This document shows, piece after piece, positions 9,790 to 30,854 of a DNA stretch of 33,409 bases. Source of the DNA: Ferruginibacter sp. (lineage in GTDB: Bacteria; Bacteroidota; Bacteroidia; Chitinophagales; Chitinophagaceae). The first letter of the stretch is position 1; each line of letters opens with the position of its first letter. Location of the stretch: assembly GCA_031430955.1 (NCBI GenBank), contig JANPCM010000085.1; one strand, given 5' to 3'. The position numbers and the translations under genes are program-made. The notes beneath the pieces are model-generated. The model saw only the letters and a list, made by a program, of their open reading frames with translations, was not told the DNA's origin and did no database searches.

Positions 9790-9840
9790 CATTTAATCTT
9801 TAATCATCATTGTTGTGTCACTTCCCGATTTTTATCGGGA
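9790..9840 (+). repeat. 5' half of a dispersed repeat (family 2), truncated by a TCCCGAT-tttt-ATCGGGA mini-palindrome
   Basis: 9790-9822 matches 23486-23518 at 30/33 nt; palindrome at 9823-9840. Confidence 0.8.
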
Positions 9841-16680: not shown

Positions 16681-16712
16681 CCCCTATCTCCGCCAGCTGG
16701 CGGAGGATTATT
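16681..16712 (+). repeat. REP-like element with a perfect CTCCGCCAGCTGGCGGAG palindromic core
   Basis: CCCCTATC-TCCGCCAGCTGGCGGA-GGATTATT; identical 18-mer at 30604 and 30829. Confidence 0.85.
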
Positions 16713-16799
16713 AATTTTTTATTTTTGCTTTATAATTATTCATTTCAACTTTTATTTTTTTACAGCTTTTTTAACAAGGTCAGACGAGACGTCAGACCT

Positions 16800-18140
16800 T
16801 TATAATTCCTTCACCGCTTTTTTAAATTGATTGCCCCTGTCTTCGTAATTTTTAAACAGATCAAAACTTGCACATGCAGGGCTTAATAAAACCACATCGC
16901 CTTTTGCCGCAAAATGAAATGCAGCTTCTGTTGCTTCTTTGGCCGAGGTGGCATTTACAATCAGTGGCATTATATCTCCAAATGCTTCATGAATTTTTCT
17001 GTTATCAGCACCCATACAAACAATAGCCTTTACTTTTTCCTTAACTAATTCTTTTAATAAGGAATAATCGTTGCCTTTATCTACACCTCCTAAAATTAAT
17101 ACCACAGGTTTTTCCATACTCTCTAATGCAAACCAGGTACTGTTTACATTTGTAGCTTTACTGTCGTTAATAAATTCTACATTTTTTATTGATGCAACAG
17201 GTTCCATCCTGTGTTCTAAGCTTTCAAAAGTTTGTAACGCCTCTCTTATATTTTCCTTTCGAATATCAACCGCTGATGCTGCTAAACTTGCGGCCATACT
17301 GTTATACTGATTGTGTTTGCCTTTTAAAGCAAAGTCTTCAATACTCATTTGCATTTCTTCGTTCTTCCATTTCAAATGCATTTTTGCGTTCATCAGGTAT
17401 GCACCCTGCGGCAGTGGTTTACTCATGGTAAATGGGGCTAGTATTGATTTAATGTGATAGTTGCTGATATATTTTTTTGTTGTGGCATCATCGAGAGAAT
17501 AAATAAAAACATCTCCGGGCTGCTGATTCATTGCAATACGAAATTTGCTGCTGATATAATTTTCTATTTTGTAATCATACCTGTCTAAATGATCTTCGGT
17601 GATGTTGGTTAACACCGCAACATCAGGCCTGAAAGTTTTTATATCATCTAACTGAAAAGAACTTATTTCGGCTATGTATAAAGGTTTAGGATCTAGTGCA
17701 ACCTGTTTTGCAAACGAATAACCAATGTTGCCCACCATGGCGCAATTACTGCCTGCATGTTTGCAGATGTGATAAATTAATGCGGTAGTAGTTGTTTTTC
17801 CGTTACTGCCTGTTACAGCAATTATTTTACTGTTGCCTTTATAGCGGTAAGCAAATTCTATTTCGCTGATGATGGCAATGCCTTTTGTTCTTATCTTTTT
17901 TACGAGTTCGTTTTTTTCCGGTATGCCCGGGCTTTTCATCACTTCATCTGCATTTAAAATTTTTTCTTCTGTATGAGTTGCTTCTTCAAATTCAATTTTG
18001 TTAATTGATAATTCTGTTCTGTAATTATCTTTTATTGCTCCGCCATCACTTACAAAAACATCATAGCCCTGCTGCCTGGCAAGAATAGCTGCGCCAATTC
18101 CGCTTTCGCCTGCACCCAATATGACTAACCGCTTCATCAT
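16800..18140 (-). CDS. murD: UDP-N-acetylmuramoyl-L-alanine--D-glutamate ligase
   Basis: ILGAGESG, TGSNGKTTT, EISSFQL, DHLDRY, NDSKATN, LLSPACASFDLF. Start uncertain (18137/18140/18161). Confidence 0.99.
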   Translation of the reverse strand: MMKRLVILGAGESGIGAAILARQQGYDVFVSDGGAIKDNYRTELSINKIEFEEATHTEEKILNADEVMKSPGIPEKNELVKKIRTKGIAIISEIEFAYRYKGNSKIIAVTGSNGKTTTTALIYHICKHAGSNCAMVGNIGYSFAKQVALDPKPLYIAEISSFQLDDIKTFRPDVAVLTNITEDHLDRYDYKIENYISSKFRIAMNQQPGDVFIYSLDDATTKKYISNYHIKSILAPFTMSKPLPQGAYLMNAKMHLKWKNEEMQMSIEDFALKGKHNQYNSMAASLAASAVDIRKENIREALQTFESLEHRMEPVASIKNVEFINDSKATNVNSTWFALESMEKPVVLILGGVDKGNDYSLLKELVKEKVKAIVCMGADNRKIHEAFGDIMPLIVNATSAKEATEAAFHFAAKGDVVLLSPACASFDLFKNYEDRGNQFKKAVKEL

Positions 18141-18174
18141 TTTACAATGTTGTTTATACATTTCGTTTTAAACG

Positions 18175-18270
18175 AAATAAAAAAGGTTTTTCAACAGCAT
18201 AGAATTTACCAAATACTTACTCTGTGCTTTTACTTAAATAAAAAGGTTCTTCAAAAGCATAGAATTTAAC
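18175..18270. repeat. Direct repeat with 60-bp period in the mraY-murD spacer
   Basis: AAAAGGTTTTTCAACAGCATAGAATTTA (18181-18208) vs AAAAGGTTCTTCAAAAGCATAGAATTTA (18241-18268), 26/28 identical. Confidence 0.8.
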
Positions 18271-18412
18271 GGGTATAGGGTTCTACTGGTCGTACAAAGT
18301 TTTTTCACAGATATTGTTTGTTCAAAATTGAAAAACATAGAATGTCAACTGCTGACAAATTCCAGGTTGCGGTTTTTCACCAAAGCATTAACCCAGCCAC
18401 AGGGCCTTTTTA

Positions 18413-19735
18413 TTATCTTAATTTTAATGTTGCTATTGCTACTATCATACTTAATATTGTTACAATCCAAAACCTAACTGCTATTTTACTTTCGTGATAA
18501 CCCAATTTTTGATAATGATGATGCAACGGGCTCATTAAAAATACCCGGCGCCCCTCGCCATACTTTCGTTTGGTGTATTTAAAATAAGTTACCTGTATCA
18601 TCACACTTAAATTTTCTACCAAAAACACGAAACAAAAAATGGGTATCAATAATTCTTTACGTACAATTATGGCCAGTGCTGCAATAATTCCACCGAGTGC
18701 AAGGCTGCCTGTATCTCCCATAAAAACCTGTGCCGGGTAACTGTTGTACCATAAAAAACCAATGCATGCCCCAACGAATGCCGCAATAAAAATGGACAGT
18801 TCGCCAATGTTGGGTATGTACATAATATTGAGGTACTCTGCAAATTTTGTATTACCACTTACATAAGCAAAAATGCCCAGCCCCAAACCAATTACAGCAC
18901 TTACCCCTGTTGCCAATCCATCCAGCCCGTCAGTAATATTGGCGCCATTGCTAACTGCGGTTACTATAAATATTACAATAATGATATACAGAATATAGGT
19001 TGCAGATTCCCAACTTTTTGGTAAAAGCTTTGCATAATTAAACTCATGATTTTTTACAAATGGTATAGTAGTAATGGTAGATTTTACATTTACAAACTTA
19101 TGCGGCACACCATCTGTAATATGAATGATAACACTGTCGCCGATCCATTTACTGCCGCCTTTCATACCTTCAATTTCTTTTCTTATTTCATCTTTATTAC
19201 TGCCATACACTTCACGCTGCACAGTAACACTTGGCGTAAAATATAAAGTGGCGCCTACAATTATGCCGAGCATTACCTGACCAAAAATTTTAAACCTTCC
19301 AGCCAATCCATCACTGTCACTTTTTTTATAAGTTCCACCTTTTGCCAGTGCTATTCTTTTTGCTCTTATTTTTAAATAGTCGTCAATAAAACCAATGGCG
19401 CCCAACCAAACAGTACACAACAACATTAAGCGGACATACACTTTTTCTAAATTGGCAAATAATAATGTAGGAATTAAAATGGCCAGAATAATAATGATAC
19501 CACCCATTGTTGGCGTGCCTTTTTTTGCCTGCTCACCTGCCAAACCTAAATCCCTTACACTTTCGCCTAATTGCTTTTTTTGTAAGAACCTGATTAATTT
19601 TTTTCCATACACTGTTGTAATGATGAGACTTAAAACCATGGCAAGCATTACCCGGAAGCTCTGGAACCTGTACAGTTCGCTGCCGGAAAATTTAATGCCT
19701 TCTGATTTTAGCCAATCAAATAAGTGATACAACAT
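18413..19735 (-). CDS. mraY: Phospho-N-acetylmuramoyl-pentapeptide transferase
   Basis: [37 protein letters not shown] and PLHHHY motifs. Confidence 0.99.
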
Positions 19736-19740
19736 TTTTT

Positions 19741-19846
19741 TAATGTGCCAATTTGCAAATATGCAAATGTGCTAATTTTAGATTTTTACAATCTTGATTT
19801 ATTATTACTCTTTTATTTTTGCAAATTTTTTCATTTGCACATTATG
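19741..19846. repeat. Octamer tandem arrays in two opposed arms in the murE-mraY spacer
   Basis: TAATGTGC CAATTTGC AAATATGC AAATGTGC TAATTTTA (from 19741) and complementary TTTGCAAA TTTTTTCA TTTGCACA (from 19818). Confidence 0.7.
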
Positions 19847-21310
19847 CTATTTCTCTAACAATTCAAACATTTCATTCAAAACTTTCTTATCATCAAAATC
19901 ATACTTCACTCCTTTTATATCCTGGTACTTCTCATGCCCTTTGCCTGCTATTAAAACAATATCTTCTTTTTGTGCCAGGCTTATGGCTGTTTTAATAGCT
20001 TCTCTTCTATCTGCAATTGCAATAACTTTTTTTTTTGCTGATATTTTTACGCCCGCTTCCATATCTTTTAAAATTTCCAACGGGTCTTCACTTCGTGGAT
20101 TATCGGAAGTAAGAATTACTTTATCGCTGTACTCACAAGCCACTTCTGCCATTACAGGTCTTTTTGTTTTATCCCTGTCGCCACCGCAGCCCACTACGGT
20201 TATTACCTGCTCAATTCCTTTACGTAATTTTTTTATTGTTGCCAGTACATTTAATAAAGCATCAGGCGTATGGGCATAATCTACAATACCAATTAATTTT
20301 TCATTCTTACTTATTGTATAATCAAATCGGCCTTCTGCACCATCAAGGCTGCTGAGTATTTGCAGCACTTCATTTTTTTCTTTACCCAAACAAATTGCTG
20401 CGCCATACACCGCTAATAAATTATATGCATTAAATTCTCCTATCAATCTAAAATGTACTTCTATATCATTTATAGTAAGATGCAAACCTGTTAAACTGTT
20501 ATCTAAAATCTTCCCTTTAAAATCAGCCATTGTTTTAAGGCTGTAATAATATTTTTTAGCAACAGTATTTTGCAGCATCACTGTCCCTCTTTTATCATCG
20601 GCGTTGCTTATTGCAAATGCTGCTGAACTTAAATTATCGAACCACATTTTTTTTACACGGATGTATTCATCAAATGTTTTATGATAATCTAAGTGGTCGT
20701 GGGTAATGTTACTGAACAATGCACCTGTAAATTGCAAACCTGTAATGCGGTGCTGGTGTATGGCATGGCTGCTCACTTCAATAAAAACATATTCGCAACC
20801 TTCATCCACCATTTGTTTTAATAAGGCATTTAAACTTATGGCATCGGGTGTGGTATGTGTTGCAGGAATAATTGTATCTGCAATTTGATTTTGCACTGTA
20901 CTTATTAAACCACATTTATAATTTAAGCCGGAAAATAATTTGAATAATAATGTAGCAATTGTGGTTTTGCCATTAGTACCTGTTACGCCAACCAATTTTA
21001 TTTTTGCAGAAGGTTCGCCATAAAAATTGTGGCTCATTAAACCAGCTGCTGCTGCACTGTCCTCCACTTCTATGTAAGTAATATCTTCTTTTAAAACTGC
21101 AGGCAAAACTTCACACACAATTACTGATGCACCATTTTCTGTTGCTTTTTCAATAAATGCATGGCCATCTGCAGCAGTTCCTTTTACAGCAATAAAGCAA
21201 CAACCTTTGCTGGTCTTTCTTGAATCAATCTGCAAACTGGTTACATCAATATTGGTATTACCCTTTACTGAGCTGATAGCAACTTTATATAGTATGTCCT
21301 GTAAAATCAA
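19847..21310 (-). CDS. murE: UDP-N-acetylmuramoyl-L-alanyl-D-glutamate--2,6-diaminopimelate ligase
   Basis: TGTNGKTT, EVSSH, DHLDYH, DYAHTPD, DNPR (DAP-specific), GKGHE; TTG start overlaps the ftsI TGA stop. Confidence 0.98.
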   Translation of the reverse strand: MILQDILYKVAISSVKGNTNIDVTSLQIDSRKTSKGCCFIAVKGTAADGHAFIEKATENGASVIVCEVLPAVLKEDITYIEVEDSAAAAGLMSHNFYGEPSAKIKLVGVTGTNGKTTIATLLFKLFSGLNYKCGLISTVQNQIADTIIPATHTTPDAISLNALLKQMVDEGCEYVFIEVSSHAIHQHRITGLQFTGALFSNITHDHLDYHKTFDEYIRVKKMWFDNLSSAAFAISNADDKRGTVMLQNTVAKKYYYSLKTMADFKGKILDNSLTGLHLTINDIEVHFRLIGEFNAYNLLAVYGAAICLGKEKNEVLQILSSLDGAEGRFDYTISKNEKLIGIVDYAHTPDALLNVLATIKKLRKGIEQVITVVGCGGDRDKTKRPVMAEVACEYSDKVILTSDNPRSEDPLEILKDMEAGVKISAKKKVIAIADRREAIKTAISLAQKEDIVLIAGKGHEKYQDIKGVKYDFDDKKVLNEMFELLEK

Positions 21311-23436
21311 TTTAATACTAAAGAAATGGTTTGACCTTTTTTAAAATTTGTTGCTGCTGTTATTGATTGATTCACCACTCTCCCTCTTCCGGCTGTGGTA
21401 ACTTTTAATCCTGAATTTTCTAATAAATACACTGCATCTTTCAATCCCATTCCCACAACGTTGGGGGTTACAGAAGCGGATGATACTGTTGAACTCCACG
21501 ATGTATTTAAAAAAGAAAAATTATTTTTCATACTCGATTTTCTAAAATCGCCATTAACTGCAGAATCGCTAAACGGCATTTTTAAAAATCCAAAAACAGA
21601 TACCAGTTCTTTTTTCATTCCAAAAAAATTATATTGAGCAGTATCAGTATTTGCAGGTGCTGCAAATTGTTTGTTGCTTAAATAGCGGCCATAAATTCTG
21701 TCGCTTATTTCTTTAAACACCGTACCCGATACATCGGCACCATAAACTAATTTAGATTCATTACTGTTTTGTATAACTACAGCCATTGTATATTTAGGAT
21801 CGTTTGAAGGAAAATATCCTATAAAAGATGCCTGGTAAATTTTATTGCCTTTGTTGTATCCTTTATTATTTAATGCCGTTACTGCAGTTCCGGTTTTGCC
21901 TGCAATGCCATAAGTATTATCCGATAAAACTTTATGCCCTGTGCCATGTACACTATCTACTACTGCTCTTAAACATTCTTTTAATTGTGATAAAGTTTCT
22001 TCGCTGCAAATTTTATCAACCAAAACTTTTGGTTCCATAGTTTTTACATCCACGCCATAATCCCTTACTGCATTTACCAAATATGGTTTCATCATTTTTC
22101 CATTGTTGGCAACTGCGTTGTACAACATCAGCATATGTAATGGTGTTACCAATTCTTCGTAGCCATGCGCCATAAAAGGAATAGTTGTGTTGGCCCAACT
22201 TCTGTTAGTTGGTTTTTTTATAGTTGTTTTTGCAGAGGCGGCATCAATATCCACACCGGTCATAACATCTAGCCTGTATTTATGAAGATGATCGATAAAT
22301 TTTGATGGTTGTGAATGATAATATTGATCGGCCATTTTTGCAAATGCCACGTTGCTGCTGGCAGCAAATGCTTCTTTAACCGTCATCACACCATTAGGAT
22401 GAGTATCGTGAATGCGTAGCCCATAAAATTCTTTTACACCTCTTTCACAATCAACGTTTGATTTTATAGTTACATATTTATCATCCAGCAAACTCATTAA
22501 TGTAGCCAGTTTAAAAATAGAACCGGGCTCTGTTGCTTTACCAATACCATAATTTAAATCTTCGGCATAACTGCCATCGGTTTGTTTGCCTAAATTGGCA
22601 ATTGCTTTTATTTTACCGGTTGCGGTTTCCATTACAATAGCAGTACCATGCAGGGAGTTATTACCTACCATCATTTTCATTAAAGCATTTTCTGTTACGT
22701 CCTGCATGTAAGTATCTAAAGTGGTGATGATATCTTTTCCTCTTTCCGGTTCAACCAGTTCCGCATCATTCACCGGAATGTATGCTCCGGCGATGTACCT
22801 TGCTAAACGCTGGCCCGATGCACCTTTAAGTAAACTGTCATAACTTCTTTCTAACCCAACATTTTTTGTACTGTCTTCTCTTGATAAACCAATAGTTCTG
22901 TTGGCAAGCAAAACATAAGGGTTAATTCTTTTGTCTCTTGTATCAAAGATGAAACCGCTTTTATTTCTGCCCTGTCTTACCAATGGAAAATCTCTTAACT
23001 CCTTATACTCAGCAAATGAAATTTTCTTCTTCAAAATAAAATACCGGTCTTCTTTTTTATAAGCCTGCTGCAATAATTTTTTATAAGCTGCAGCATTTTT
23101 ATCTTTAAAAAGATTAGCAAGACTTATACTCAAAGAATCAATATTGTCTTTAAATCTTTTACCGTTTTTTTCTCTCAGGCCTTCTGCACCAAAATCAACA
23201 AACACATCAAATATGGGCACCGATGTACTCAGCATATTTCCATCTTCGCTGTAAATAGTTCCTCTTTCTGCATCAATGGGTAAATATTTTAAGTGTAAAT
23301 TTTTTCCTAAATCTTTCCAGTAATTTCCTTCTATGCGTTGAATATAAAATGCCCTGCCCAGCACTACTGCACCTAAAAGTATCATCCCTAAAAAACAGAG
23401 ATACACCCGCCACAATATGTCTTTTTTTATATCCAT
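21307..23436 (-). CDS. ftsI: Division transpeptidase (class B PBP, FtsI) with a C-terminal PASTA domain
   Basis: RGTIYS, EPGSIFK (SxxK), SSN (SxN), GKTGTA (KTG); PNVVGMGLKDAVYLLEN PASTA. Confidence 0.95.
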   Translation of the reverse strand: MDIKKDILWRVYLCFLGMILLGAVVLGRAFYIQRIEGNYWKDLGKNLHLKYLPIDAERGTIYSEDGNMLSTSVPIFDVFVDFGAEGLREKNGKRFKDNIDSLSISLANLFKDKNAAAYKKLLQQAYKKEDRYFILKKKISFAEYKELRDFPLVRQGRNKSGFIFDTRDKRINPYVLLANRTIGLSREDSTKNVGLERSYDSLLKGASGQRLARYIAGAYIPVNDAELVEPERGKDIITTLDTYMQDVTENALMKMMVGNNSLHGTAIVMETATGKIKAIANLGKQTDGSYAEDLNYGIGKATEPGSIFKLATLMSLLDDKYVTIKSNVDCERGVKEFYGLRIHDTHPNGVMTVKEAFAASSNVAFAKMADQYYHSQPSKFIDHLHKYRLDVMTGVDIDAASAKTTIKKPTNRSWANTTIPFMAHGYEELVTPLHMLMLYNAVANNGKMMKPYLVNAVRDYGVDVKTMEPKVLVDKICSEETLSQLKECLRAVVDSVHGTGHKVLSDNTYGIAGKTGTAVTALNNKGYNKGNKIYQASFIGYFPSNDPKYTMAVVIQNSNESKLVYGADVSGTVFKEISDRIYGRYLSNKQFAAPANTDTAQYNFFGMKKELVSVFGFLKMPFSDSAVNGDFRKSSMKNNFSFLNTSWSSTVSSASVTPNVVGMGLKDAVYLLENSGLKVTTAGRGRVVNQSITAATNFKKGQTISLVLN

Positions 23437-23462
23437 CCCCTATCCCCTAAAGGGGGATTATT
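23437..23462 (+). repeat. REP-like hairpin abutting the ftsI start codon
   Basis: CCCCTATC-CCCTAAAGGG-GGATTATT. Confidence 0.8.
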
Positions 23463-23485
23463 ATGTTTTATTTTTTTTGAGCAAA

Positions 23486-23558
23486 CATTTGATCTCTAAT
23501 CATCATCGTTGTGTCACTCACTTGTACCGCATACCGTTATTGAACTTTTATCTAAGCG
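23486..23558 (+). repeat. Apparently intact copy of dispersed repeat family 2
   Basis: 5' half matches 9790-9822 (30/33); 3' half (23521-23558) matches 30744-30781 (33/38). Confidence 0.85.
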
Positions 23559-23577
23559 TATTTTTATACTTCAGCAA

Positions 23578-23925
23578 TTATTTTTTCTTTTCTTCCTGTG
23601 GTGATAACACCACCGGCGGCGCCACCAATTCTTTTAGCCCCAATGGTTCTACTGCTTTTGCCAGTTCGCTTGCTTTACTTCTAAAAATCACTTCGCTCTT
23701 TACTGTTTTATATTCGTACTCTAATTCTTTGATGTGCTTTTCTGTTACATTTATTTTTCTAACTAACTTATCTGCGTAATGGCCGTTATAGATGTACAAT
23801 ACCGCCAGTACCGATAAAAACAAAAAGAATGGGATATTTTTAACTACCCATTTATAACTCAGCAACCTCCTCCACTCAATTTTTTGAGTAAGTGATGGTT
23901 CATTTATTTTTTTTTCTTCCTGCAT
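23578..23925 (-). CDS. ftsL: FtsL-like cell division protein
   Basis: Single TM followed by a coiled coil and LGL..PP motif; between rsmH and ftsI. Confidence 0.88.
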   Translation of the reverse strand: MQEEKKINEPSLTQKIEWRRLLSYKWVVKNIPFFLFLSVLAVLYIYNGHYADKLVRKINVTEKHIKELEYEYKTVKSEVIFRSKASELAKAVEPLGLKELVAPPVVLSPQEEKKK

Positions 23926-23954
23926 TAATTTTTTATATTTTTTTATTGAAACTT

Positions 23955-24899
23955 TTATTTTAATTCGGCCACCCTCAGCTTTGCACTTCTGCTGCGGGGG
24001 TTTTGTTTTTGTTCTGCCGCTGCAGCAACAATTGGTTTTTTTGTAATGATGATAAAAGGGCTTTCGGGTTTAATACCATACACATTATCTGCTTCAGTTT
24101 CGGAAAAACTTCCGTAACGAAAAAATGTTTTCACTATCCTGTCTTCCAAAGAATGAAAGGTGATAATTACTGCTCGTCCGCCGGGCTTTAATAGTGTGGG
24201 GGTTTGTTGTAATAATTCTTTTAATGCGCCTAACTCATCGTTCACTTCAATACGCAGTGCCTGAAATACCTGGGCAAAGTATTTTTGAGGGTTTCCTTTT
24301 ACCGCAGTATGCACAGCATGTTTAAATTCATTAATGGTACGCACAGGTGCTAAAGCTCTTTGCTGTACAATTATTTTAGCAAGCGTTTTCGAATTGGTTA
24401 CTTCGCCATATTGCTCAAACATTTTATGCAGTTGTTGTTCTGTAAAATTTTTCAGCACATCGGCAGCAGTAATTTTTTCACGCTGGTCCATTCGCATATC
24501 CAATGCAGCATCAAAGCGAATAGAAAAACCTCTAGCTGCTTCATCAAACTGGTGACTGGATACGCCAAGATCTGCCAAAATACCATCTACCTTACTAATT
24601 TTATGCAATCGTAAAAAGCGTTGCAGGTGCCGGAAATTTTGCGGAATAAAAATTATCCGTTCATCATCAGGCAAGTTATTTTTTGCATCAGCATCCTGGT
24701 CAAAAACATAGAGCCTGCCATTTTGGTTTAGCTGTTGCAAAATAGCCAGGCTGTGTCCGCCGCCGCCAAATGTGGCATCCACATAAATACCATCTGCTTT
24801 AATTTGCAATCCTTCCATGGCTTCGTTTAGTAAAACGGGCGTGTGGTAATTGGGTAATTGGGAATTTGGAATTGGTATGTTACCTTTTTCGTTATTCAT
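23955..24899 (-). CDS. rsmH: 16S rRNA m4C1402 methyltransferase
   Basis: HTPVLL, DATFGGGGHS, DLGVSSHQFD, FQALRIEVNDEL, TFHSLEDR, NPRSRSAKLR. Confidence 0.99.
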   Translation of the reverse strand: MNNEKGNIPIPNSQLPNYHTPVLLNEAMEGLQIKADGIYVDATFGGGGHSLAILQQLNQNGRLYVFDQDADAKNNLPDDERIIFIPQNFRHLQRFLRLHKISKVDGILADLGVSSHQFDEAARGFSIRFDAALDMRMDQREKITAADVLKNFTEQQLHKMFEQYGEVTNSKTLAKIIVQQRALAPVRTINEFKHAVHTAVKGNPQKYFAQVFQALRIEVNDELGALKELLQQTPTLLKPGGRAVIITFHSLEDRIVKTFFRYGSFSETEADNVYGIKPESPFIIITKKPIVAAAAEQKQNPRSRSAKLRVAELK

Positions 24900-24930
24900 T
24901 CCATTTTACTAATTACAAATTCCTAATTAC
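24846..24930. repeat. Heptamer arrays straddling the mraZ-rsmH junction
   Basis: GTAATTG GGTAATTG GGAATTT GGAATTG-type run (24846-24881, inside the rsmH 5' end) and complementary CTAATTA CAAATTC CTAATTA (24909-24930, includes the mraZ stop). Confidence 0.7.
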
Positions 24931-25378
24931 TTGTTTTATTCATCACCTCGTTAGCCAAATCGCTAAAGCTTTGCGGTGTAAAAGTTTCAAAGAACTGTGT
25001 ATACTTACTTTTATCCCAGATCTCAATTTTGTTTACGGCACTCACCAGCACAATATCTTTTTCCAGGCCTGCATGTTCGCTAAGGTTTTTGGGCAGCAAT
25101 AATCTGCCTGCCGAATCCAGCTCTAACTGAATGGCGCCGTTTAAAAAATAGCGGCGAAATTCTCTAACTTTAGGATCAAAATCGTTCAGCTTGCTTATTT
25201 CAGAAAATATAGGTTCCCAGCTTTGCAATGGGTATAACGTAAGGCATTTTTCAAACCCCCGGTTAAGCACAAACTGGTTGGCACTCTTATGCGTAAGCTG
25301 TTTTTTAAAACCAGCCGGCAGCAAAAAGCGACCCTTTAAGTCCAATGTAGCTTCATATTCACCGAGGAAACCTATCAT
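24923..25378 (-). CDS. mraZ: Division/cell wall cluster transcriptional repressor MraZ
   Basis: FLGEYEATLDLKGR, LDSAGRLLLP, IEIWD; first gene of the cluster. ATG 25378 preferred. Confidence 0.98.
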   Translation of the reverse strand: MIGFLGEYEATLDLKGRFLLPAGFKKQLTHKSANQFVLNRGFEKCLTLYPLQSWEPIFSEISKLNDFDPKVREFRRYFLNGAIQLELDSAGRLLLPKNLSEHAGLEKDIVLVSAVNKIEIWDKSKYTQFFETFTPQSFSDLANEVMNKTSN

Positions 25379-25400
25379 TTTCAATTATTTAGCCCTGCTT

Positions 25401-25440
25401 AAACAGAAACTTACACAAAATAACACTTTTTCCCACTTCG
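25401..25440 (-). promoter_or_regulatory. Putative MraZ operator (dcw box): GTG-core repeats with 10-bp period
   Basis: Minus strand cgaaGTGgga aaaaGTGtta ttttGTGtaa gtttCTGttt; CAC at 25414, 25424 and 25434 on the + strand, directly upstream of mraZ. Confidence 0.75.
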
Positions 25441-25464
25441 CAATCATTTTTTAGATAAAGTTTT

Positions 25465-25566
25465 TTATCCACATGAATTATATGCAAACAGGGCTTGGGT
25501 TTGAGGGAGCTTTATAAGAATTTAAATGTGCGTTGGGTGTGAATTGATGTGGATAGGTGTTGATAA
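25465..25566. promoter_or_regulatory. Cluster of DnaA-box-like 9-mers
   Basis: Perfect TTATCCACA at 25465-25473; reverse-oriented TGTGAATTG (25538), TGTGGATAG (25548), TGTTGATAA (25558) at 10-bp spacing. Confidence 0.6.
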
Positions 25567-25592
25567 CACAATTTTAAAATAGAATTTTAGGT

Positions 25593-25814
25593 ATGTCAAC
25601 TGCAGGATATTCAGGTACACCACTTTTAAAAAACCTGGGCATTAAACCCGAAGTGAAAATTTTGCTGATAGATGCGCCGGGTAATTATTTTGATATTTTA
25701 GGAAGATAACATAAGAAATTTGCACTGCAAAATAATTTAGTTGATATAAAAATTTGCGCCATTAGTGATTTGTGGAGCGGATTAAAATTAGTAATGCCTG
25801 TTACAAAAAGATAA
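25593..25814 (+). pseudogene. DUF3052-family pseudogene (internal deletion plus frameshift)
   Basis: MSTAGYSGTPLLKNLGIKPEVKILLIDAPGNYFDILGR* (25593-25709), then in shifted frames EDNIRN and FALQNNLVDIKICAISDLWSGLKLVMPVTKR*. Both ends resemble DUF3052; the middle is missing. Confidence 0.78.
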
Positions 25815-25815
25815 A

Positions 25816-27135
25816 TTATATCGCAGCCAGCGGCATACTAATAACAAACGTACTTCCTTTCCCTAACACACTATCTGCCTTAATAGTTCCATGATGCGCC
25901 TGCACCATAATTTTTACATAACTCAGCCCCAGGCCAAAGCCTTTTACGTTATGGATATTACCCGTATGGGCACGGTAAAATTTTTCAAAAATACGGTTTA
26001 CGGTTTCTTTGTTCATACCAATGCCGTTATCTTCTATTTTTATTTTTAGCTGATTACCGCTATTTTCAGTAGTTAGTTTTATCTGCAAATTTTCTTTGGA
26101 ATATTTTACCGCATTATCTAAAAGGTTATTTATTAAATTGGTAAAATGTACTTCATCGGCCAGTATCAAATCTTTTTCTGCATTTAACTTCACATCAAGT
26201 GTACCCTGTTTTTCTTCTACCTGTAATGTAATATTATTTAATGCACTGGTAATTAAATCGTGTGCCGAGGATTTTTTAAGATTTAATTGTACTTCCTGCT
26301 TATCCAGCAAAGCCGCCTGCAGTATGGTTTCCACCTGCTTGTTCATGCGTTTGTTTTCTTCTTTAATTATATGGGTAAAGTAATTGGTTTTTTCTTCGTT
26401 GCCTTTTACCTTATCATTTTTTAACGCATCTACTGCCAGCGAAATAGTAGCCAGCGGTGTTTTAAATTCATGCGTCATGTTATTAATAAAATCAGATTTT
26501 ATTTCACTTAATTTTTTTTGTTTCAGCAATGTTCTTATAGTAATAAAAAAAGCGGTGGTAATAATTAAAGTAAACAAAATAGCACCAATTATAAACCAGT
26601 ACATTTCTTTCCAGATGATATTTTTTTGGTTGGGTATAATTACACAAAGCAATTCTTCATTCACCAAATTTTCGTAGTTGCTGCCGCTGGGTGGTTGTAA
26701 CGCAATTACATGGTTTATGTTATTGGCAGAGTCAACATAAAGTTTATAATAATTATCGGTAAGTAATTGCCTTCCGCTTATGGAGTTTTCGGTAATGGCA
26801 AATTCAAAAGGATAATGCTTAAGATTTTTTTGGTTAAATGCATTTCGTATAATCTCTGATATCTCTTCTTTTGAAAATCTTTGTATTACTGATGATTTAA
26901 AATATTGTAACCTGTCACCTGGAAAAAGCATATCGTTCCTGTTGGCAAAAGGTATAATGGTATTTTTACCCTGAGATAATGTTTCGCCAGCTATTTCCAA
27001 AGCGTGGATAATATTTTCCTCCACCTGCTTATCCTTGGCATCCCTTGCACTTTTTATCCAGAGAAACTGAAAAAAAATCAGCCCCAGCAGCGATAAAAAA
27101 ATCAGTATGGTTATAATAGGGAAAATTCTTTTCAT
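25816..27135 (-). CDS. Membrane-bound sensor histidine kinase (RprX-like)
   Basis: Two TM helices flanking a periplasmic domain; KSDFINNMTHEFKTP, NLLDNAVKYS, DNGIGM, GFGLGL. Confidence 0.93.
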   Translation of the reverse strand: MKRIFPIITILIFLSLLGLIFFQFLWIKSARDAKDKQVEENIIHALEIAGETLSQGKNTIIPFANRNDMLFPGDRLQYFKSSVIQRFSKEEISEIIRNAFNQKNLKHYPFEFAITENSISGRQLLTDNYYKLYVDSANNINHVIALQPPSGSNYENLVNEELLCVIIPNQKNIIWKEMYWFIIGAILFTLIITTAFFITIRTLLKQKKLSEIKSDFINNMTHEFKTPLATISLAVDALKNDKVKGNEEKTNYFTHIIKEENKRMNKQVETILQAALLDKQEVQLNLKKSSAHDLITSALNNITLQVEEKQGTLDVKLNAEKDLILADEVHFTNLINNLLDNAVKYSKENLQIKLTTENSGNQLKIKIEDNGIGMNKETVNRIFEKFYRAHTGNIHNVKGFGLGLSYVKIMVQAHHGTIKADSVLGKGSTFVISMPLAAI

Positions 27136-27140
27136 CTATG

Positions 27141-27148
27141 CAAAAGTA
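27141..27148 (-). promoter_or_regulatory. Bacteroidetes -7 element (TACTTTTG) for the kinase gene; implies a very short or absent leader
   Basis: TAnnTTTG ending 5 nt upstream of ATG 27135. Confidence 0.55.
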
Positions 27149-27228
27149 TATCAGTTAGAGGGTGTAAAATATGGTAAAACTGCCAAACTGTAAATTTAAC
27201 GAAGGTTTAGTTTTTTTCTACATCTGAC

Positions 27229-27295
27229 CGTACTCATCTGGCCGCTATAAATCTCTTTAATTTATAAACAATATTTTTAGCGGCCTATGAGTACG
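27229..27295. repeat. Long inverted repeat in a divergent intergenic region
   Basis: CGTACTCAT-ct-GGCCGCTA (27229-27247) / TAGCGGCC-t-ATGAGTACG (27278-27295) around an AT-rich loop. Confidence 0.75.
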
Positions 27296-27390
27296 ATAAA
27301 AGCTTATCCGTAGTGGCCTGACACCTAAATATCTTCAATAAATTTTACTTTTCTCTTTTGTAATTTGCAATTAAATCTTATTTTAGGAAT

Positions 27391-27942
27391 ATGATTGACC
27401 CAGGGCCCGGCATATTATTAATTGCAGACCCGTTTTTAAAAGATCCCAATTTTTTAAGAACGGTAGTACTGTTGTGCGATCATAAAGAAGAAGGCAGTTT
27501 TGGTTTTGTGCTGAATAAAAAAATTGAACAAACCCTTGATGAACTACTTAATAATTTTGATGGCTTTCCCTTACCGGTTTTTTATGGCGGCCCGGTGCAA
27601 ACAGATACTATTCACTTTGTACACCAATACCCCGATTTAATACCCGAAGCTTTTGAAATTAGTGATGGTATTTATTGGGGTGGCAATTTTGACACTGTTA
27701 CTGCTTTAATAAAAAATAAAAGTCTTGACCCAAAAAAAATAAAATTTTTTATTGGTTACAGTGGCTGGAGCGATGGGCAACTGAATGATGAAATGAAAGA
27801 AAAAAGTTGGTTAACAGTTGACGCTACAAAAAATTTAGTGTTCCATACAAAAGATACCGAAGTATGGAAAAGCAGCCTGATACATTTGGGCGGCGATTAT
27901 GAAATGATGGTGAATTTTCCGATTGATCCGCAATTGAATTAA
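27391..27942 (+). CDS. YqgE/AlgH family protein (DUF179)
   Basis: LLIADP..DPNFLRTVVLLCDH..GSFGFVLN, YGGPV, FIGYSGW..GQL..E...SW. Confidence 0.95.
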   Translation: MIDPGPGILLIADPFLKDPNFLRTVVLLCDHKEEGSFGFVLNKKIEQTLDELLNNFDGFPLPVFYGGPVQTDTIHFVHQYPDLIPEAFEISDGIYWGGNFDTVTALIKNKSLDPKKIKFFIGYSGWSDGQLNDEMKEKSWLTVDATKNLVFHTKDTEVWKSSLIHLGGDYEMMVNFPIDPQLN

Positions 27943-27946
27943 GGGG

Positions 27947-28103
27947 GTGAATGGGCAATGGTCAATAGGCAATTAGCAATGCACCAATATTTCATTATTC
28001 ACCATTGATCATTCACCATTCGCAATTGACCATTCACAATTGACCATTCACAATTGACCATTCACAATTGACCATTCACAATTGACCATTCACAATTGAC
28101 CAC
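27947..28103. repeat. Heptamer-based tandem array with an opposed complementary arm between convergent genes
   Basis: Five perfect CAATTGACCATTCA units plus a partial unit at 28023-28102; left arm GTGAATG GGCAATG GTCAATA GGCAATT AGCAATG at 27947-27981. Confidence 0.92.
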
Positions 28104-28928
28104 TTACCGCAGCCCTCCAATAACTTCTGCAAACAGTTCACTCAACTTTGCATCAGCTTTACCAGCTACTGCAATTATTTCTCCAATATCAACAGGTTGC
28201 AAATTATCTGGGTCGCATTCGTCAGTTATTACACTTATTGCAGCACAGGGCAAACCCACATGATTGGCAACAATTACTTCGGGCACAGTACTCATGCCCA
28301 CCATATCGGCACCCATATTTCTTAAATGCCTGTACTCTGCTCTGGTTTCTAAATTGGGCCCTGCAACAGCAACATAAATACCTTCTTTAACTGGTATAGA
28401 TAATTTTTTTGCAGCAGTTAAAATTTTATTGTTCAAATCTTTGTTGTACGGGCAACTCATATCTACAAAACGATTTCCAAAAGCGGCATCATTCAATCCA
28501 CGTAAAGGATTTTCGGGTTGCTCATTAATATGATCGGTCAATAAAACCAGATCGCCTTTTTTGTAAGCAGCATTCATACCCCCTGCTGCATTACTCAATA
28601 GTAAATATTGTACCCCTAATTCTTTCATTACTCTTACCGGAAAAGTTACCTGCTGCATACTGTACCCCTCGTAATAATGAAATCTGCCCTGCATGGCAAT
28701 TACCGGCACATTATTCAACAACCCATAAATTAAATTTCCTTTATGAAACTCTACCGTTGCTTCCGGAAAATCAGGTATTTCATTATAGGGTATTGTAATT
28801 TTTATATCAATTTTATGTATCAACGCACTCAGACCTGTGCCTAATACAATGCCTGCTAAAGGTTTTTCCATACCCTTACTATGTAAAAATGCCGCACATT
28901 CTTTTATCATTTTTAAAGAATACTCCAT
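28104..28928 (-). CDS. punA: Purine nucleoside phosphorylase (trimeric PNP type)
   Basis: GIVLGTGL, MQGRFHYYEGY, NAAGG, GPNLET.AE, VGMSTVPEV; has ITDEC where canonical PNPs have ITN. Confidence 0.93.
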   Translation of the reverse strand: MEYSLKMIKECAAFLHSKGMEKPLAGIVLGTGLSALIHKIDIKITIPYNEIPDFPEATVEFHKGNLIYGLLNNVPVIAMQGRFHYYEGYSMQQVTFPVRVMKELGVQYLLLSNAAGGMNAAYKKGDLVLLTDHINEQPENPLRGLNDAAFGNRFVDMSCPYNKDLNNKILTAAKKLSIPVKEGIYVAVAGPNLETRAEYRHLRNMGADMVGMSTVPEVIVANHVGLPCAAISVITDECDPDNLQPVDIGEIIAVAGKADAKLSELFAEVIGGLR

Positions 28929-28988
28929 AACTAAATCTTTATTGGGTGAATGTACGTAAATTGGTTTTAAACTGTTTTACATTTATAT

Positions 28989-30257
28989 ATGAAATTTCTT
29001 TCTGCAATATTTATTTTTTTATCAATAAACAGCTTTGCCCAAAACGGTTACAAAACCGGCGATGCTGTGGGTGATCTGCAGGCAAAAAAAATTCTCAATT
29101 ATACTACACCCTCTTCTTCTCTTAAAAATTTAAAAGGCAATATAACCATTATAGATTTTTTTGGTACCTGGTGTGTGCCTTGTATTAAGGTTTTACCTGA
29201 ACTTACCAGTTTTAAAAATAAATTTGCTGCAGATGTAAATATTTTTTTAGTATCAAACGAAGCAGAGGATAAATTAAATAAATTTATCAGCAGCCGAAAA
29301 CCTTTTGCCTTACCCCTTGTTGTGGATGAAGGCAATATTTTTACAAATGCTTTTCAGCCACCATCTTATCCTTACACGGTGGTGCTGGATAAAAATTTAA
29401 AAGTAATTTCAATTACCAATGCTGCAGACCTTACAGAAGCCATGCTGCAAAAGTTTATTGAGGATGGAAAAAATATGATGGTAACAAAAACTGTTGAAGT
29501 TAAAAGTGAAACTAAAGCAGAAATAAAAACTGATACCAAAATGCCTGCCTATACTGCAAGTAAAAATGTATTGATAAAACTTTCGCAGGATTTTATGTAT
29601 GCCGCCAAATTAAATGAGGACGTTACAGCATTTATCGATCAGCTTAAAAATTTATCATTTGATGAGTTGAAAAAAAATATTAGTGGCGATGAAGAAAAAA
29701 AAGCCTTTTGGATAAATCTTTACAATGGTTATGTAAATTCATCGCTGCATAAAAATCCTGATCTTTATAAAGACAGGGGCGAATTTTTTTCTGCAAAAAA
29801 TATTATTGTTGCCGGTAAAACATTCAGCCTTGATGTAATAGAACATGGTATTTTAAGGAAAAGTAAAATAAAATGGAGCCTGGGCTATTTTAATAAATTA
29901 TTTCCTAATAAAACAGAAAAGGCTTTACGGGTACGCCATTTAGATAAGCGCATACATTTTGCCTTAAACTGCGGCGCTAAAAGTTGCCCGCCTATTGCAT
30001 TTTATAACGCTGAAAATATTAACCAACAATTAGACATAGCTACAAAAGCATATTTAACCGGCGAGGCAACTTATAATGCAGCAGAAAATAAATTATATCT
30101 TCCTGCAATTATGGGATGGTTTAGAAGGGATTTTAGCGGAAAGAAAAAAATGATCAGTATGGTTAAGTCATTAAATATTGTTCCTGAAAAAGTTTCGCCA
30201 TCAATTGAATTTAAACCTTACGACTGGACACTATATTTAGAAAATTATAAACTGTAA
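28989..30257 (+). CDS. Exported TlpA/thioredoxin-like domain + DUF547 fusion protein
   Basis: Signal peptide ending SFA-Q; DFFGTWCVPC and SYPYT; DUF547 motifs AFWINLYN, SLDVIEHGILR, RIHFALNCGAKSCPP. Confidence 0.85.
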   Translation: MKFLSAIFIFLSINSFAQNGYKTGDAVGDLQAKKILNYTTPSSSLKNLKGNITIIDFFGTWCVPCIKVLPELTSFKNKFAADVNIFLVSNEAEDKLNKFISSRKPFALPLVVDEGNIFTNAFQPPSYPYTVVLDKNLKVISITNAADLTEAMLQKFIEDGKNMMVTKTVEVKSETKAEIKTDTKMPAYTASKNVLIKLSQDFMYAAKLNEDVTAFIDQLKNLSFDELKKNISGDEEKKAFWINLYNGYVNSSLHKNPDLYKDRGEFFSAKNIIVAGKTFSLDVIEHGILRKSKIKWSLGYFNKLFPNKTEKALRVRHLDKRIHFALNCGAKSCPPIAFYNAENINQQLDIATKAYLTGEATYNAAENKLYLPAIMGWFRRDFSGKKKMISMVKSLNIVPEKVSPSIEFKPYDWTLYLENYKL

Positions 30258-30260
30258 ATT

Positions 30261-30596
30261 ATGAGCGACCATTATTACAATGCAGCTGACCTTGCAAAAT
30301 TTGGTAACATCGGCGAATACCAAAAAGATTTGGCAGATAAATTTTTTGCCTGGTACGGTGCAGCCTTTGCCGATAGTGCATTAACTGCAAAAGAAAAATC
30401 GCTGATCGCCTTAGCCGTTGCACATGCCGTACAATGCCCTTACTGCATTGATGCTTACAGCAGTGATGCCTACGAAAAAGGTTACAGCGAAGCACAGATG
30501 ATGGAAGCTGTACACATTGCCGCAGCCATAAAAGGTGGCGCTGCATTGGTGCATGGCGTGCAAATGATGAATAAAGTAAAGGAGATTGCGATGTAG
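30261..30596 (+). CDS. AhpD/CMD-family peroxidase-like protein of the type associated with arsS
   Basis: LTAKEKSLIALAVAHAVQCPYCIDAY (CxxC), GAALVHGVQM; directly upstream of arsS. Confidence 0.9.
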   Translation: MSDHYYNAADLAKFGNIGEYQKDLADKFFAWYGAAFADSALTAKEKSLIALAVAHAVQCPYCIDAYSSDAYEKGYSEAQMMEAVHIAAAIKGGAALVHGVQMMNKVKEIAM

Positions 30597-30854
30597 CCCC
30601 TGTCTCCGCCAGCTGGCGGAGAACTAAGATTGCTACTGTATAATTTTTTTAGTAACAGCTATTAATTTTATTGGTACAAGACTTTTGAGCCGGTCTTTTG
30701 AATTACTATTTAACTTCATTGGTCTGGCCTAAGGCGAGACACTCTTGTACAGCAAATCCTTATTGAACTTTTATCTCAGCGATTGATAAACGGAATAAAA
30801 AATAAATTATAAACTTTAAAATTATGTTCTCCGCCAGCTGGCGGAGTCAGGGGC
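30596..30854. mobile_element. 259-bp element bounded by 29-bp inverted repeats (REPIN/MITE-like)
   Basis: GCCCCTGTCTCCGCCAGCTGGCGGAGAAC (30596-30624) vs reverse complement of 30826-30854, 28/29 identical; contains a family 2 repeat at 30744-30781. Confidence 0.7.

Follow-up and report, generated by a model that had tools for sequence, protein, structure and literature searches.

A 14-16-nt hairpin module found in place of host hairpin segments in Ferruginibacter sp. and its relatives

How can one short palindrome come to occupy the core of a repeat whose flanks stay as they were? The question arises in a 33,409-nt stretch of DNA from Ferruginibacter sp. (contig JANPCM010000085.1, assembly GCA_031430955.1), which was analysed as a whole and is called the window here. 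The repeats beginning at 16681 and 23437 read as the initial annotation of this DNA had stated, with identical 8-nt flanks (16681-16688 and 16705-16712; 23437-23444 and 23455-23462) enclosing different cores. The first core is a 16-nt perfect palindrome, referred to as M1, and the same 16-mer, reported without mismatch near 30596 and 30826, was indeed found at 30605-30620 and 30830-30845. The relevant features of the window are as follows.

9823..9840, no strand assigned: M2 (18-nt hairpin) in the ftsA-ftsZ spacer; 6 nt of an unrelated repeat replaced
16681..16712, no strand assigned: family A host repeat (C-run/G-run hairpin) carrying M1
16689..16704, no strand assigned: M1 in the murD-ftsW spacer, in a repeat touching the ftsW start codon; 10-nt stem-loop replaced
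23437..23462, no strand assigned: unfilled family A repeat touching the ftsI start codon; its 10-nt stem-loop at 23445-23454 is the original one
30605..30620, no strand assigned: M1 in a repeat directly after the stop codon of a carboxymuconolactone-decarboxylase-family gene
30723..30739, no strand assigned: probable further module (17-nt imperfect hairpin); 5 nt replaced, in the repeat family that hosts M2
30830..30845, no strand assigned: M1 in an inverted repeat ahead of a radical-SAM/DUF3641 gene

Within the genome under study (G000; 4.35 Mb, 36% G+C, 94% complete), the exact 16-mer occurs 20 times, against about 6e-5 copies expected by base-frequency arithmetic, and the reversed pattern, searched as a control, returned 0 copies. 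Including loop variants, G000 holds 46 copies, of which the exact 16-mer makes up 20. The core had been described as invariant; this applies to the 6-bp stem, which is fixed and constant across phyla, but not to the loop of 2-4 nt, so that M1 measures 14-16 nt. Filled sites have predicted folding energies of -8 to -9 kcal/mol, with z-scores of -2.4 to -3.3 versus -0.25 at an unfilled site. The same 16-mer is present in Patescibacteria, Cloacimonadota and other phyla. Because the window segment 30465-30628 is matched without difference in contigs of two sediment runs (X1 and X2, possibly from the source study), M1 is not confined to a single assembly. Relatives, the genome of an isolate (L173/L174) and contigs of both runs all contain it, which rules out an assembly artefact.

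Filled and original cores, whose comparison at orthologous sites had been proposed in the initial annotation, coexist at six such sites: 16689, 23445 (reversed), 30605, 30830, trpA, and L309 versus G000:C521. At 16689, M1 is found in G000, in G056 and, decayed, in G134, and the 10-nt original in G011, G132, G116 and G063. On the tree, the filled pair of G000 and G056 (support 100/100) is nested among unfilled relatives, which makes the filled state derived and bears out the suspicion that the core is younger than its host. The ftsI site presents the reversed pair, unfilled in G000 and occupied by a 14-nt M1 variant in G011. At 30605, G056 retains a 10-nt original between matching flanks, and G011 has a 10-nt original in a related repeat; at 30830, G056 has a degenerate unfilled repeat and G011 a 14-nt M1 variant. 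The second module suspected at 9823 proved real: M2 is common to G000 and G056, and two damaged tRNA-Lys copies adjoining GIY-YIG genes have an identical module. Similarly, the hairpin at 30723-30739, represented by only 5 nt in G011, has a related hairpin in a damaged tRNA-Asp copy (G000:C623:4194). Across the filled/unfilled pairs, 5-18 host bases are lost and none duplicated; the earlier claim that target duplication is absent agrees with these pairs. Nor do the terminal bases of the module match the host bases at the junctions.

The hosts of M1 are diverse. Inside the window, the left flank at 30597 (family D9) has a single mismatch in 8 bases to its counterpart at 16681, so that all three M1 copies belong to one repeat superfamily; the claim of unlike flanks is therefore weak there, and the case for unrelated hosts rests on sites outside the window. 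The hosts comprise four repeat families, an in-frame repeat in trpA and a copy of a tRNA-Met gene, the intact gene lying about 330 nt away; further hosts are coding sequences, a riboswitch and RNase P RNA, three genes of which carry M1 as helices with the fold preserved. The initial assignment of M1 to REP elements was too narrow. Most G000 copies sit in family A flanks, and the genome-wide count with classification of flanks revealed several flank lineages, which excludes a single lineage for all copies. At trpA, site-specific flanks are retained on both sides of M1. Traffic is one-way: host tips were not found in the flanks of other hosts, and no reciprocal tip swapping between host families was seen across nine flank patterns.

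Where a usable paralogue permitted reconstruction, the segment lost to M1 (24 of 54 sites) measured 10 nt in 17 cases, 12 in four, 11 in two and 9 in one, and that lost to M2 (20 of 24 sites) 6-8 nt in 18 cases and 17 nt in two. The first and last bases of the replaced segment are complementary in 43 of 44 rows (M1, 24/24; M2, 19/20), these being raw counts at the observed boundaries. In a junction table for tRNA copies (41 rows, counted by eye), the ends pair in all 28 rows with a score of at least 15 and non-zero length, corresponding to 14 distinct junctions; of ten low-score rows, five pair, four are unpaired and one has zero length, and the remaining three show nothing but the insertion of a 20-nt palindrome. 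Many segments replaced by M2 have no predicted fold (0.0 kcal/mol), and the complementary ends therefore do not simply restate that hosts are hairpins. In C-run/G-run hosts and whole tRNA arms, complementary ends are expected regardless.

Replacement of this kind, with neither target duplication nor junction homology, in unrelated hosts and with the filled state derived, likely reflects a cut-and-replace reaction, so far undescribed, that exchanges one hairpin arm for another. Our search for hairpin-by-hairpin replacement, including the 14-nt core as a string, covered main texts, with subscription journals largely outside its reach, and found no description. More specifically, M1, a non-coding hairpin of 14-16 nt, would take the place of loops closed by a base pair in a structure-directed swap of arms, the enzyme for which is encoded elsewhere; we consider this reading evenly poised between right and wrong. 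A host stretch would be extruded as a hairpin or cruciform arm and one strand cut at both feet of that arm; the module hairpin, with its 5' and 3' ends held adjacent by its own stem, would be joined into the gap while the hairpin of the opposite strand keeps both flanks together, and replication would then fix the filled allele. Filled repeats would additionally be copied as whole units by whatever mobilises the host repeat.

The initial annotation had named HUH/RAYT enzymes, reverse transcriptase and DUF559 as candidates, none of which stands out. Gene counts across 71 genomes of one genus, which are non-independent, singled out no enzyme, the correlations with module count being weak throughout, at 0.43 for Y1, 0.34 for GIY-YIG, 0.28 for DUF559 and 0.25 for genome size. 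Of 23 genomes that lack DUF559, 21 contain the module, and a search of G000 (94% complete) for reverse transcriptase (PF00078) gave no match. Our favoured candidate for the cutter, itself doubtful, is a clade of SLX1-like GIY-YIG nucleases of about 80 residues encoded beside tRNA genes. A module is present at 22 of 40 GIY-YIG loci; for Y1 loci the figure is 2 of 20, and for random windows 114 of 5000. On the GIY-YIG tree, tRNA-linked and repeat-flanked proteins separate at 100/99, and a module accompanies 26 of 27 rows in the former clade versus 2 of 10 in the latter, where the 26/27 count uses patterns widened after the loci were seen, omits 12 of 49 loci (protein not extracted) and confounds module type with locus descent. 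The best solved-structure matches of the tRNA-linked proteins are SLX1 (E 0.004) and UPF0213. Their single-domain genes are flanked by a module hairpin, but the majority of module copies are remote from genes of this kind; G105 has 65 modules with only four GIY-YIG matches, and G024 has 16 modules with one. GIY-YIG enzymes are hydrolytic and, to our knowledge, do not join DNA; the joining step would require either a ligase of the host or another enzyme. In G012, the tRNA unit has a loop variant that is unique to it among 25 copies, so the tRNA units are not clearly a current donor, and damaged tRNA copies may be no more than targets that tolerate a module.

A wider proposal, possible although we lean against it, is that 14-20-nt hairpin modules spread over Bacteroidota, Patescibacteria and other phyla by dedicated DNA arm exchange, in which any strand segment held shut by even a single base pair would be excised at its two feet and a module hairpin put in, without homology or duplication, the driver being tiny tRNA-linked SLX1-like nucleases. 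No neighbour gene shared by module sites in other phyla emerged: 913 frames from 127 loci, compared all against all by BLAST, formed no informative cluster, and Pfam searches of 150 of 161 nearby frames identified two GIY-YIG proteins and one Y1.

The same replacement could instead be written by a Y1/HUH transposase of the RAYT or TIRYT type through successive strand transfers on single-stranded DNA. HUH cutting and rejoining at hairpins is not known to leave a target duplication. The cutting and rejoining of single-stranded DNA at hairpins, as set out in PMC6006769, would also provide the joining step, and Y1 has the highest of the above correlations. Nevertheless, the three Y1 genes of G000 are bracketed by their own repeats, with M1 or M2 flanking none of them (0/3); the two Y1 loci of relatives with a nearby module have it within another host sequence; five of the seven genomes without a Y1 match still contain the module; and inspection of the junction bases, which vary, showed neither a tag nor a dinucleotide in common. 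We regard a Y1 writer as unlikely.

In-place writing does not account for every copy. The initial annotation had envisaged a process that writes a fixed palindrome in place, and replacement at orthologous sites agrees with this, but of 25 informative sites filled in relatives, 10 have either no repeat at all or a different repeat in G000, indicating whole-unit spread or loss; 12 are shared by descent and only one is a clean in-place swap. Filled repeats thus also move as whole units, and some copies are not swaps. These counts, the predominance of family A flanks and the turnover of whole repeats between species in the murD-ftsW spacer would suit a history in which a few ancient swaps or mutations made filled subfamilies, later spread by repeat duplication and conversion via 8-12-nt flanks with no active writer. 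Such spread is a valid contributor to copy number. We consider this history improbable, and as the sole explanation it is refuted: it cannot put the module in hosts without common flanks (families B, C and D, the tRNA-Met copy, RNase P helices, coding sequences), and it conflicts with the intact flanks at trpA and the identical 16-mer in distant phyla.

Enzyme-free template switching during replication, in which a stalled hairpin is either lost or made perfect and the nascent strand takes its copy of the module from elsewhere, appears very improbable. The commonest M1 variants are perfect palindromes and the remainder mostly one or two transitions away, as palindrome correction would yield, and long palindromic flanks occur at G000:C675 and C379; against this, traffic is one-way and the stem constant across phyla, and the unlike terminal bases of module and host leave no junction microhomology in the present set for template switching to use. 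An RNA intermediate, with the module joined to structured RNAs by splicing or ligation and returned to DNA by reverse transcriptase, is hardly credible: the hosts do include tRNA, RNase P RNA and a riboswitch, but G000 has no reverse transcriptase match and the hosts are mostly intergenic repeats in either orientation.

The arm-swap reading can be set beside several known systems. Phage T4 SegB is a free-standing GIY-YIG homing endonuclease in a tRNA cluster and shares the linkage of a GIY-YIG gene to tRNA genes; homing, however, transfers an entire allele by means of long homology, which would not put a 16-mer into unrelated hairpins. A retroelement-derived insertion differs in that PF00078 has no match in G000. 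According to the parts of PMC3733652 and PMC6006769 drawn on here, REP/REPIN repeats with RAYT (TnpA-REP) and TIRs with TIRYT are short non-autonomous hairpin repeats presumed to be moved in trans on single-stranded DNA, some REPs are inserted within other palindromes, and repeats sometimes lie in frame in genes. M1 is likewise a multi-copy palindrome able to fold as a single-stranded hairpin, but it lacks a GTAG/CGTC tag (20 exact copies and 54 M1-type sites, by inspection), brackets no cognate Y1 gene, measures only 14-16 nt, substitutes host bases rather than adding to them, and overwrites several families of repeats that in turn flank nuclease genes of their own.

Small GIY-YIG (Ssn) proteins cleave single-stranded DNA beside their hairpin repeats (NTS/SRM), and the hairpin loop is dispensable for cleavage (main text of PMC11893778). 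A tiny GIY-YIG gene between hairpin-bearing repeats is seen in Ssn and, here, at the tRNA-linked genes, from which most copies of the module are remote; the loop is dispensable in Ssn and variable in M1. In contrast, the genes linked to modules group in a tRNA-associated clade distinct from the repeat-flanked one. The main text of PMC11893778 contains neither tRNA nor Bacteroid*, and the passages used here describe cleavage, not replacement. The GC clusters of yeast mitochondria (GC42), as presented in the portions of PMC4478555 used here, are short G+C-rich palindromes in A+T-rich DNA with conserved stems, variable loops, presence/absence at homologous sites and an unknown mover. The base composition, stem, loop and presence/absence pattern recur in M1. 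The mark of MITEs and GC clusters is a target duplication with the host sequence kept, short direct repeats resembling one being described for the clusters, and GC42 has 42 nt, whereas M1 is shorter, has no duplication and is accompanied by loss of host bases.

The origin, spread and change of REP-type repeats constitute a long-standing question, for which dated before/after pairs are available here at housekeeping-gene junctions, and the complementary ends offer a geometric rule open to test. Hairpin-arm replacement without homology or duplication, a reaction we did not find described, alters copies of tRNA genes, helices of RNase P RNA and loops of proteins in several phyla and connects modules nested in repeats with palindrome-marked tRNA copies beside small GIY-YIG genes. 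If enzymatic, it would be a candidate tool for structure-directed editing of single-stranded DNA; if the arm-exchange reading is true, the modules would rank with the smallest known mobile units and the exchange would be a natural structure-programmed DNA editing reaction.

Some minor observations complete the survey. The context of L239, judged by eye to be 5S rRNA, had no Rfam match and was rejected. Viral contigs contain 56 loci with the 16-mer, many of them G+C-rich, where the matches are probably due to chance; no relative of the G000:C95 GIY-YIG nuclease, an 84-residue protein encoded on the minus strand at L032:507-758, was found in these contigs. Some M1 sites, such as the two cited above, are surrounded by long palindromic flanks. 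Finally, the damaged tRNA copies flanking SLX1-like GIY-YIG genes nearly always carry a hairpin module of this class.

The feature is real, and replacement of a host segment by a hairpin module is shown for the genome studied (G000; 4.35 Mb, 36% G+C). The window, its contig C85, carries a cell-division and cell-wall cluster from mraZ to ftsZ that includes a Bacteroidetes-type FtsL domain, and hairpin repeats abut the start and stop codons of the cluster genes. Re-reading the sequence confirmed all coordinates of the initial annotation, which had described the 16-nt module, here M1, as invariant. The exact 16-mer occurs 20 times in G000, against none for a reversed control, and is present in 11 of the 41 genomes searched, G000 counted. 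However, allowing a loop of 2-4 nt raises the count in G000 to 46, so the constant part is the six-base-pair stem, while the loop varies. This loop-tolerant pattern matches 61 of 71 genus genomes (control, 0-1); the commonest loops yield perfect palindromes, and most others lie one or two transitions away.

Sixteen exact M1 copies recur with a 91-nt period at G017:C4:293973-295353, and a variant is centred in a perfect palindrome reaching a contig end (G000:C675:5040-5133), possibly an assembly fold-back. A tandem array of 14-nt units (window 27977-28116, inverted copy 27946-27981) lies between DUF179 and nucleoside phosphorylase genes; tracts of 7-nt period resembling it flank M1 in several distant genomes.

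Orthologous sites document the exchange. Among 30 murD-ftsW loci, the site is filled by M1 in G000 and its relative G056, holds a decayed module in G134, and retains a 10-nt original in G011, G132, G116 and G063; the remaining loci carry other repeats, decayed repeats or no repeat. In the murD+ftsW tree, the filled pair (100/100) stands among unfilled relatives, and G134 branches separately from it, at a fork that the tree does not resolve. The ftsL-ftsI site is unfilled in G000 and filled in G011, so that the filled/unfilled pair initially noted within G000 is exactly reversed in G011. At window 30605, both G056 and G011 lack the M1 that G000 has; at 30830, G056 shows a degenerate unfilled site and G011 a 14-nt M1 variant. 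An 18-nt module, M2, alternates with another 18-nt hairpin at a single orthologous position of the murD-ftsW spacer (M2 in 3 loci, the other hairpin in 4). For the reverse comparison, 40 sites around matches in G056, G011 and G132 were aligned with G000 and judged by eye: 12 were common with G000, 1 was a clean in-place swap, 2 were ambiguous and 15 uninformative, and at 10 G000 lacked the whole repeat or carried another. Modules replace host bases in place, and filled repeats also move or disappear as entire units. Separately, in the G011 ftsL-ftsI spacer (L348), an extra ~39-nt insertion with a short inverted repeat breaks a family-E repeat, a further nested element.

The unrelated hosts proposed initially exist in the rest of the genome, but the three within the window are related. 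Besides several variants of a C-run/G-run hairpin repeat (family A), M1 occupies repeats of families B, C and D, all three unrelated. A flank-anchored paralogue search recovered unfilled counterparts for 24 of 54 M1-type sites, with lost segments of 10 nt in 17, 12 nt in 4, 11 nt in 2 and 9 nt in 1. M1 also replaces 10 nt of a partial tRNA-Met copy ~330 nt from the intact gene. In trpA, it lies in frame within an older in-frame repeat; at this position G056 has identical site-specific flanks that enclose 10 nt. M2 (window 9823-9840; 25 copies) takes the place of 6-8 nt in a tRNA-Leu-like copy and in five repeat contexts; in tRNA-Lys copies it replaces the whole anticodon arm. Neither a duplication nor bases common to module end and host end were seen at any compared site. 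Flank searches found no host tips in the flanks of other hosts: traffic is one-way.

The trpA loop (G000:C356:1645; L037, L038) has no in-frame repeat in G116, G134 and G132, while G000, G056 and G011 each have a different one; ~1.2 kb from it is a stop-interrupted DUF559 gene. In the long ftsZ (639 aa), window 9398-9416 resembles a 20-nt palindromic module, perhaps by chance.

Beyond the genus, M1 was found at no fewer than 127 loci in species genomes; 100 of the 127 listed lie at ≤55% G+C, where chance is unlikely. By record title, most of the matches listed come from Patescibacteria and Bacteroidota, and some from Cloacimonadota and Elusimicrobia. M1 appears as helices in three RNase P RNA genes (241-270 bits). 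M1 also lies in frame in eight housekeeping genes (CysRS, MetK, RecJ, a Mur ligase, TsaD, PNPase, a Glu/Leu/Phe/Val dehydrogenase and PheT), and a cobalamin riboswitch has a near-match in its variable region. The RNase P RNA genes L192, L213 and L189 each hold several modules, of both the M1 and the M2 type, within variable helices.

The first and last bases of the lost segment are complementary in 24/24 M1 rows, 19/20 M2 rows and 28/28 well-aligned tRNA rows (14 distinct junctions). In 10 low-scoring tRNA rows the ends pair in 5 and do not in 4, and three good tRNA rows show a 20-nt palindrome inserted with no host base lost. These rows are not independent, and C-run/G-run stems and whole tRNA arms would give this outcome anyway; the informative cases are segments of 5-8 nt that one to three pairs close and for which hardly any fold, or none, is predicted. 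Chance pairing would be expected, by estimate, in roughly one case in four. The rule suggests that the closing base pair brings the two cut points together, as the stem does the module's two ends, which points to an arm swap in which a host hairpin or cruciform arm would be exchanged for the module hairpin. We give this mechanism about an even chance of being correct.

M1 behaves like a non-autonomous REP-type hairpin. It fails the tests for GTAG/CGTC REPs (PMC3733652 and PMC6006769), for MITEs and for GC clusters (PMC4478555); the comparison with Ssn/SRM (PMC11893778) gives no clear match or mismatch. PMC3733652 reports REPs within other palindromes, but as insertions, whereas M1 replaces host bases. 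No description of such replacement was found in the literature searched, and there is a fair chance that it is a new reaction. The window contributes the reversed orthologous pair, the complementary-ends rule, and nested modules and tRNA-nuclease units linked within one genome.

Among candidate enzymes, the three Y1 genes of G000 are each accompanied by repeats of their own and have no module beside them. The genome also contains one stop-interrupted DUF559 gene, no reverse transcriptase match and nine GIY-YIG matches. Six of its seven small GIY-YIG genes adjoin a tRNA gene or damaged tRNA copies, and all six loci include a copy bearing a palindrome of the module class:

tRNA-linked small GIY-YIG genes of G000
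C95:978-1385, small GIY-YIG gene
C659:6958-7366, small GIY-YIG gene
C176:4-302, small GIY-YIG gene
C623:4194-4443, small GIY-YIG gene
C500:485-694, small GIY-YIG gene
C252:2919-3134, small GIY-YIG gene

In relatives, a module lies within ~300 nt of 22/40 GIY-YIG loci, against 2/20 Y1 loci and 114/5000 random G000 windows (Fisher p 0.0008, kin not being independent). In a tree of 37 of the 49 GIY-YIG proteins, 26/27 members of the tRNA-linked clade have a module (patterns widened afterwards), as do 2/10 of the repeat-flanked clade, one picked because module-bearing. M1 accompanies the Met and Phe branches and one Pro-type locus. The best solved-structure matches of the C95 protein, though weak, are SLX1 and UPF0213 proteins. 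Several points weigh against a GIY-YIG writer. Module number correlates similarly with Y1 (0.43), GIY-YIG (0.34), DUF559 (0.28) and genome size (0.25), and GIY-YIG matches are few in some genomes rich in modules. In G012, the tRNA unit has a loop variant that was not found elsewhere in that genome. A hydrolytic nuclease cannot by itself join DNA. The association is strong, but does not tell a cutter from a favoured target, and the GIY-YIG enzyme is a tentative lead, rather doubtful at present.

In relatives G103, G017, G070 and G089, the tRNA/GIY-YIG unit is repeated in tandem at periods of ~340-440 nt. Inverted copies of family B bracket the genes of a second GIY-YIG clade (G000:C124:2284-2601; L241-L243), an arrangement like that of REP-flanked transposase genes; one of these GIY-YIG loci (L279) matches the Rfam Flavo-1 RNA, which may be the same as family B. 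DUF559 matches in many genus genomes often lie within open frames of 800-1380 codons, suggesting that the domain has become part of large proteins by insertion or fusion.
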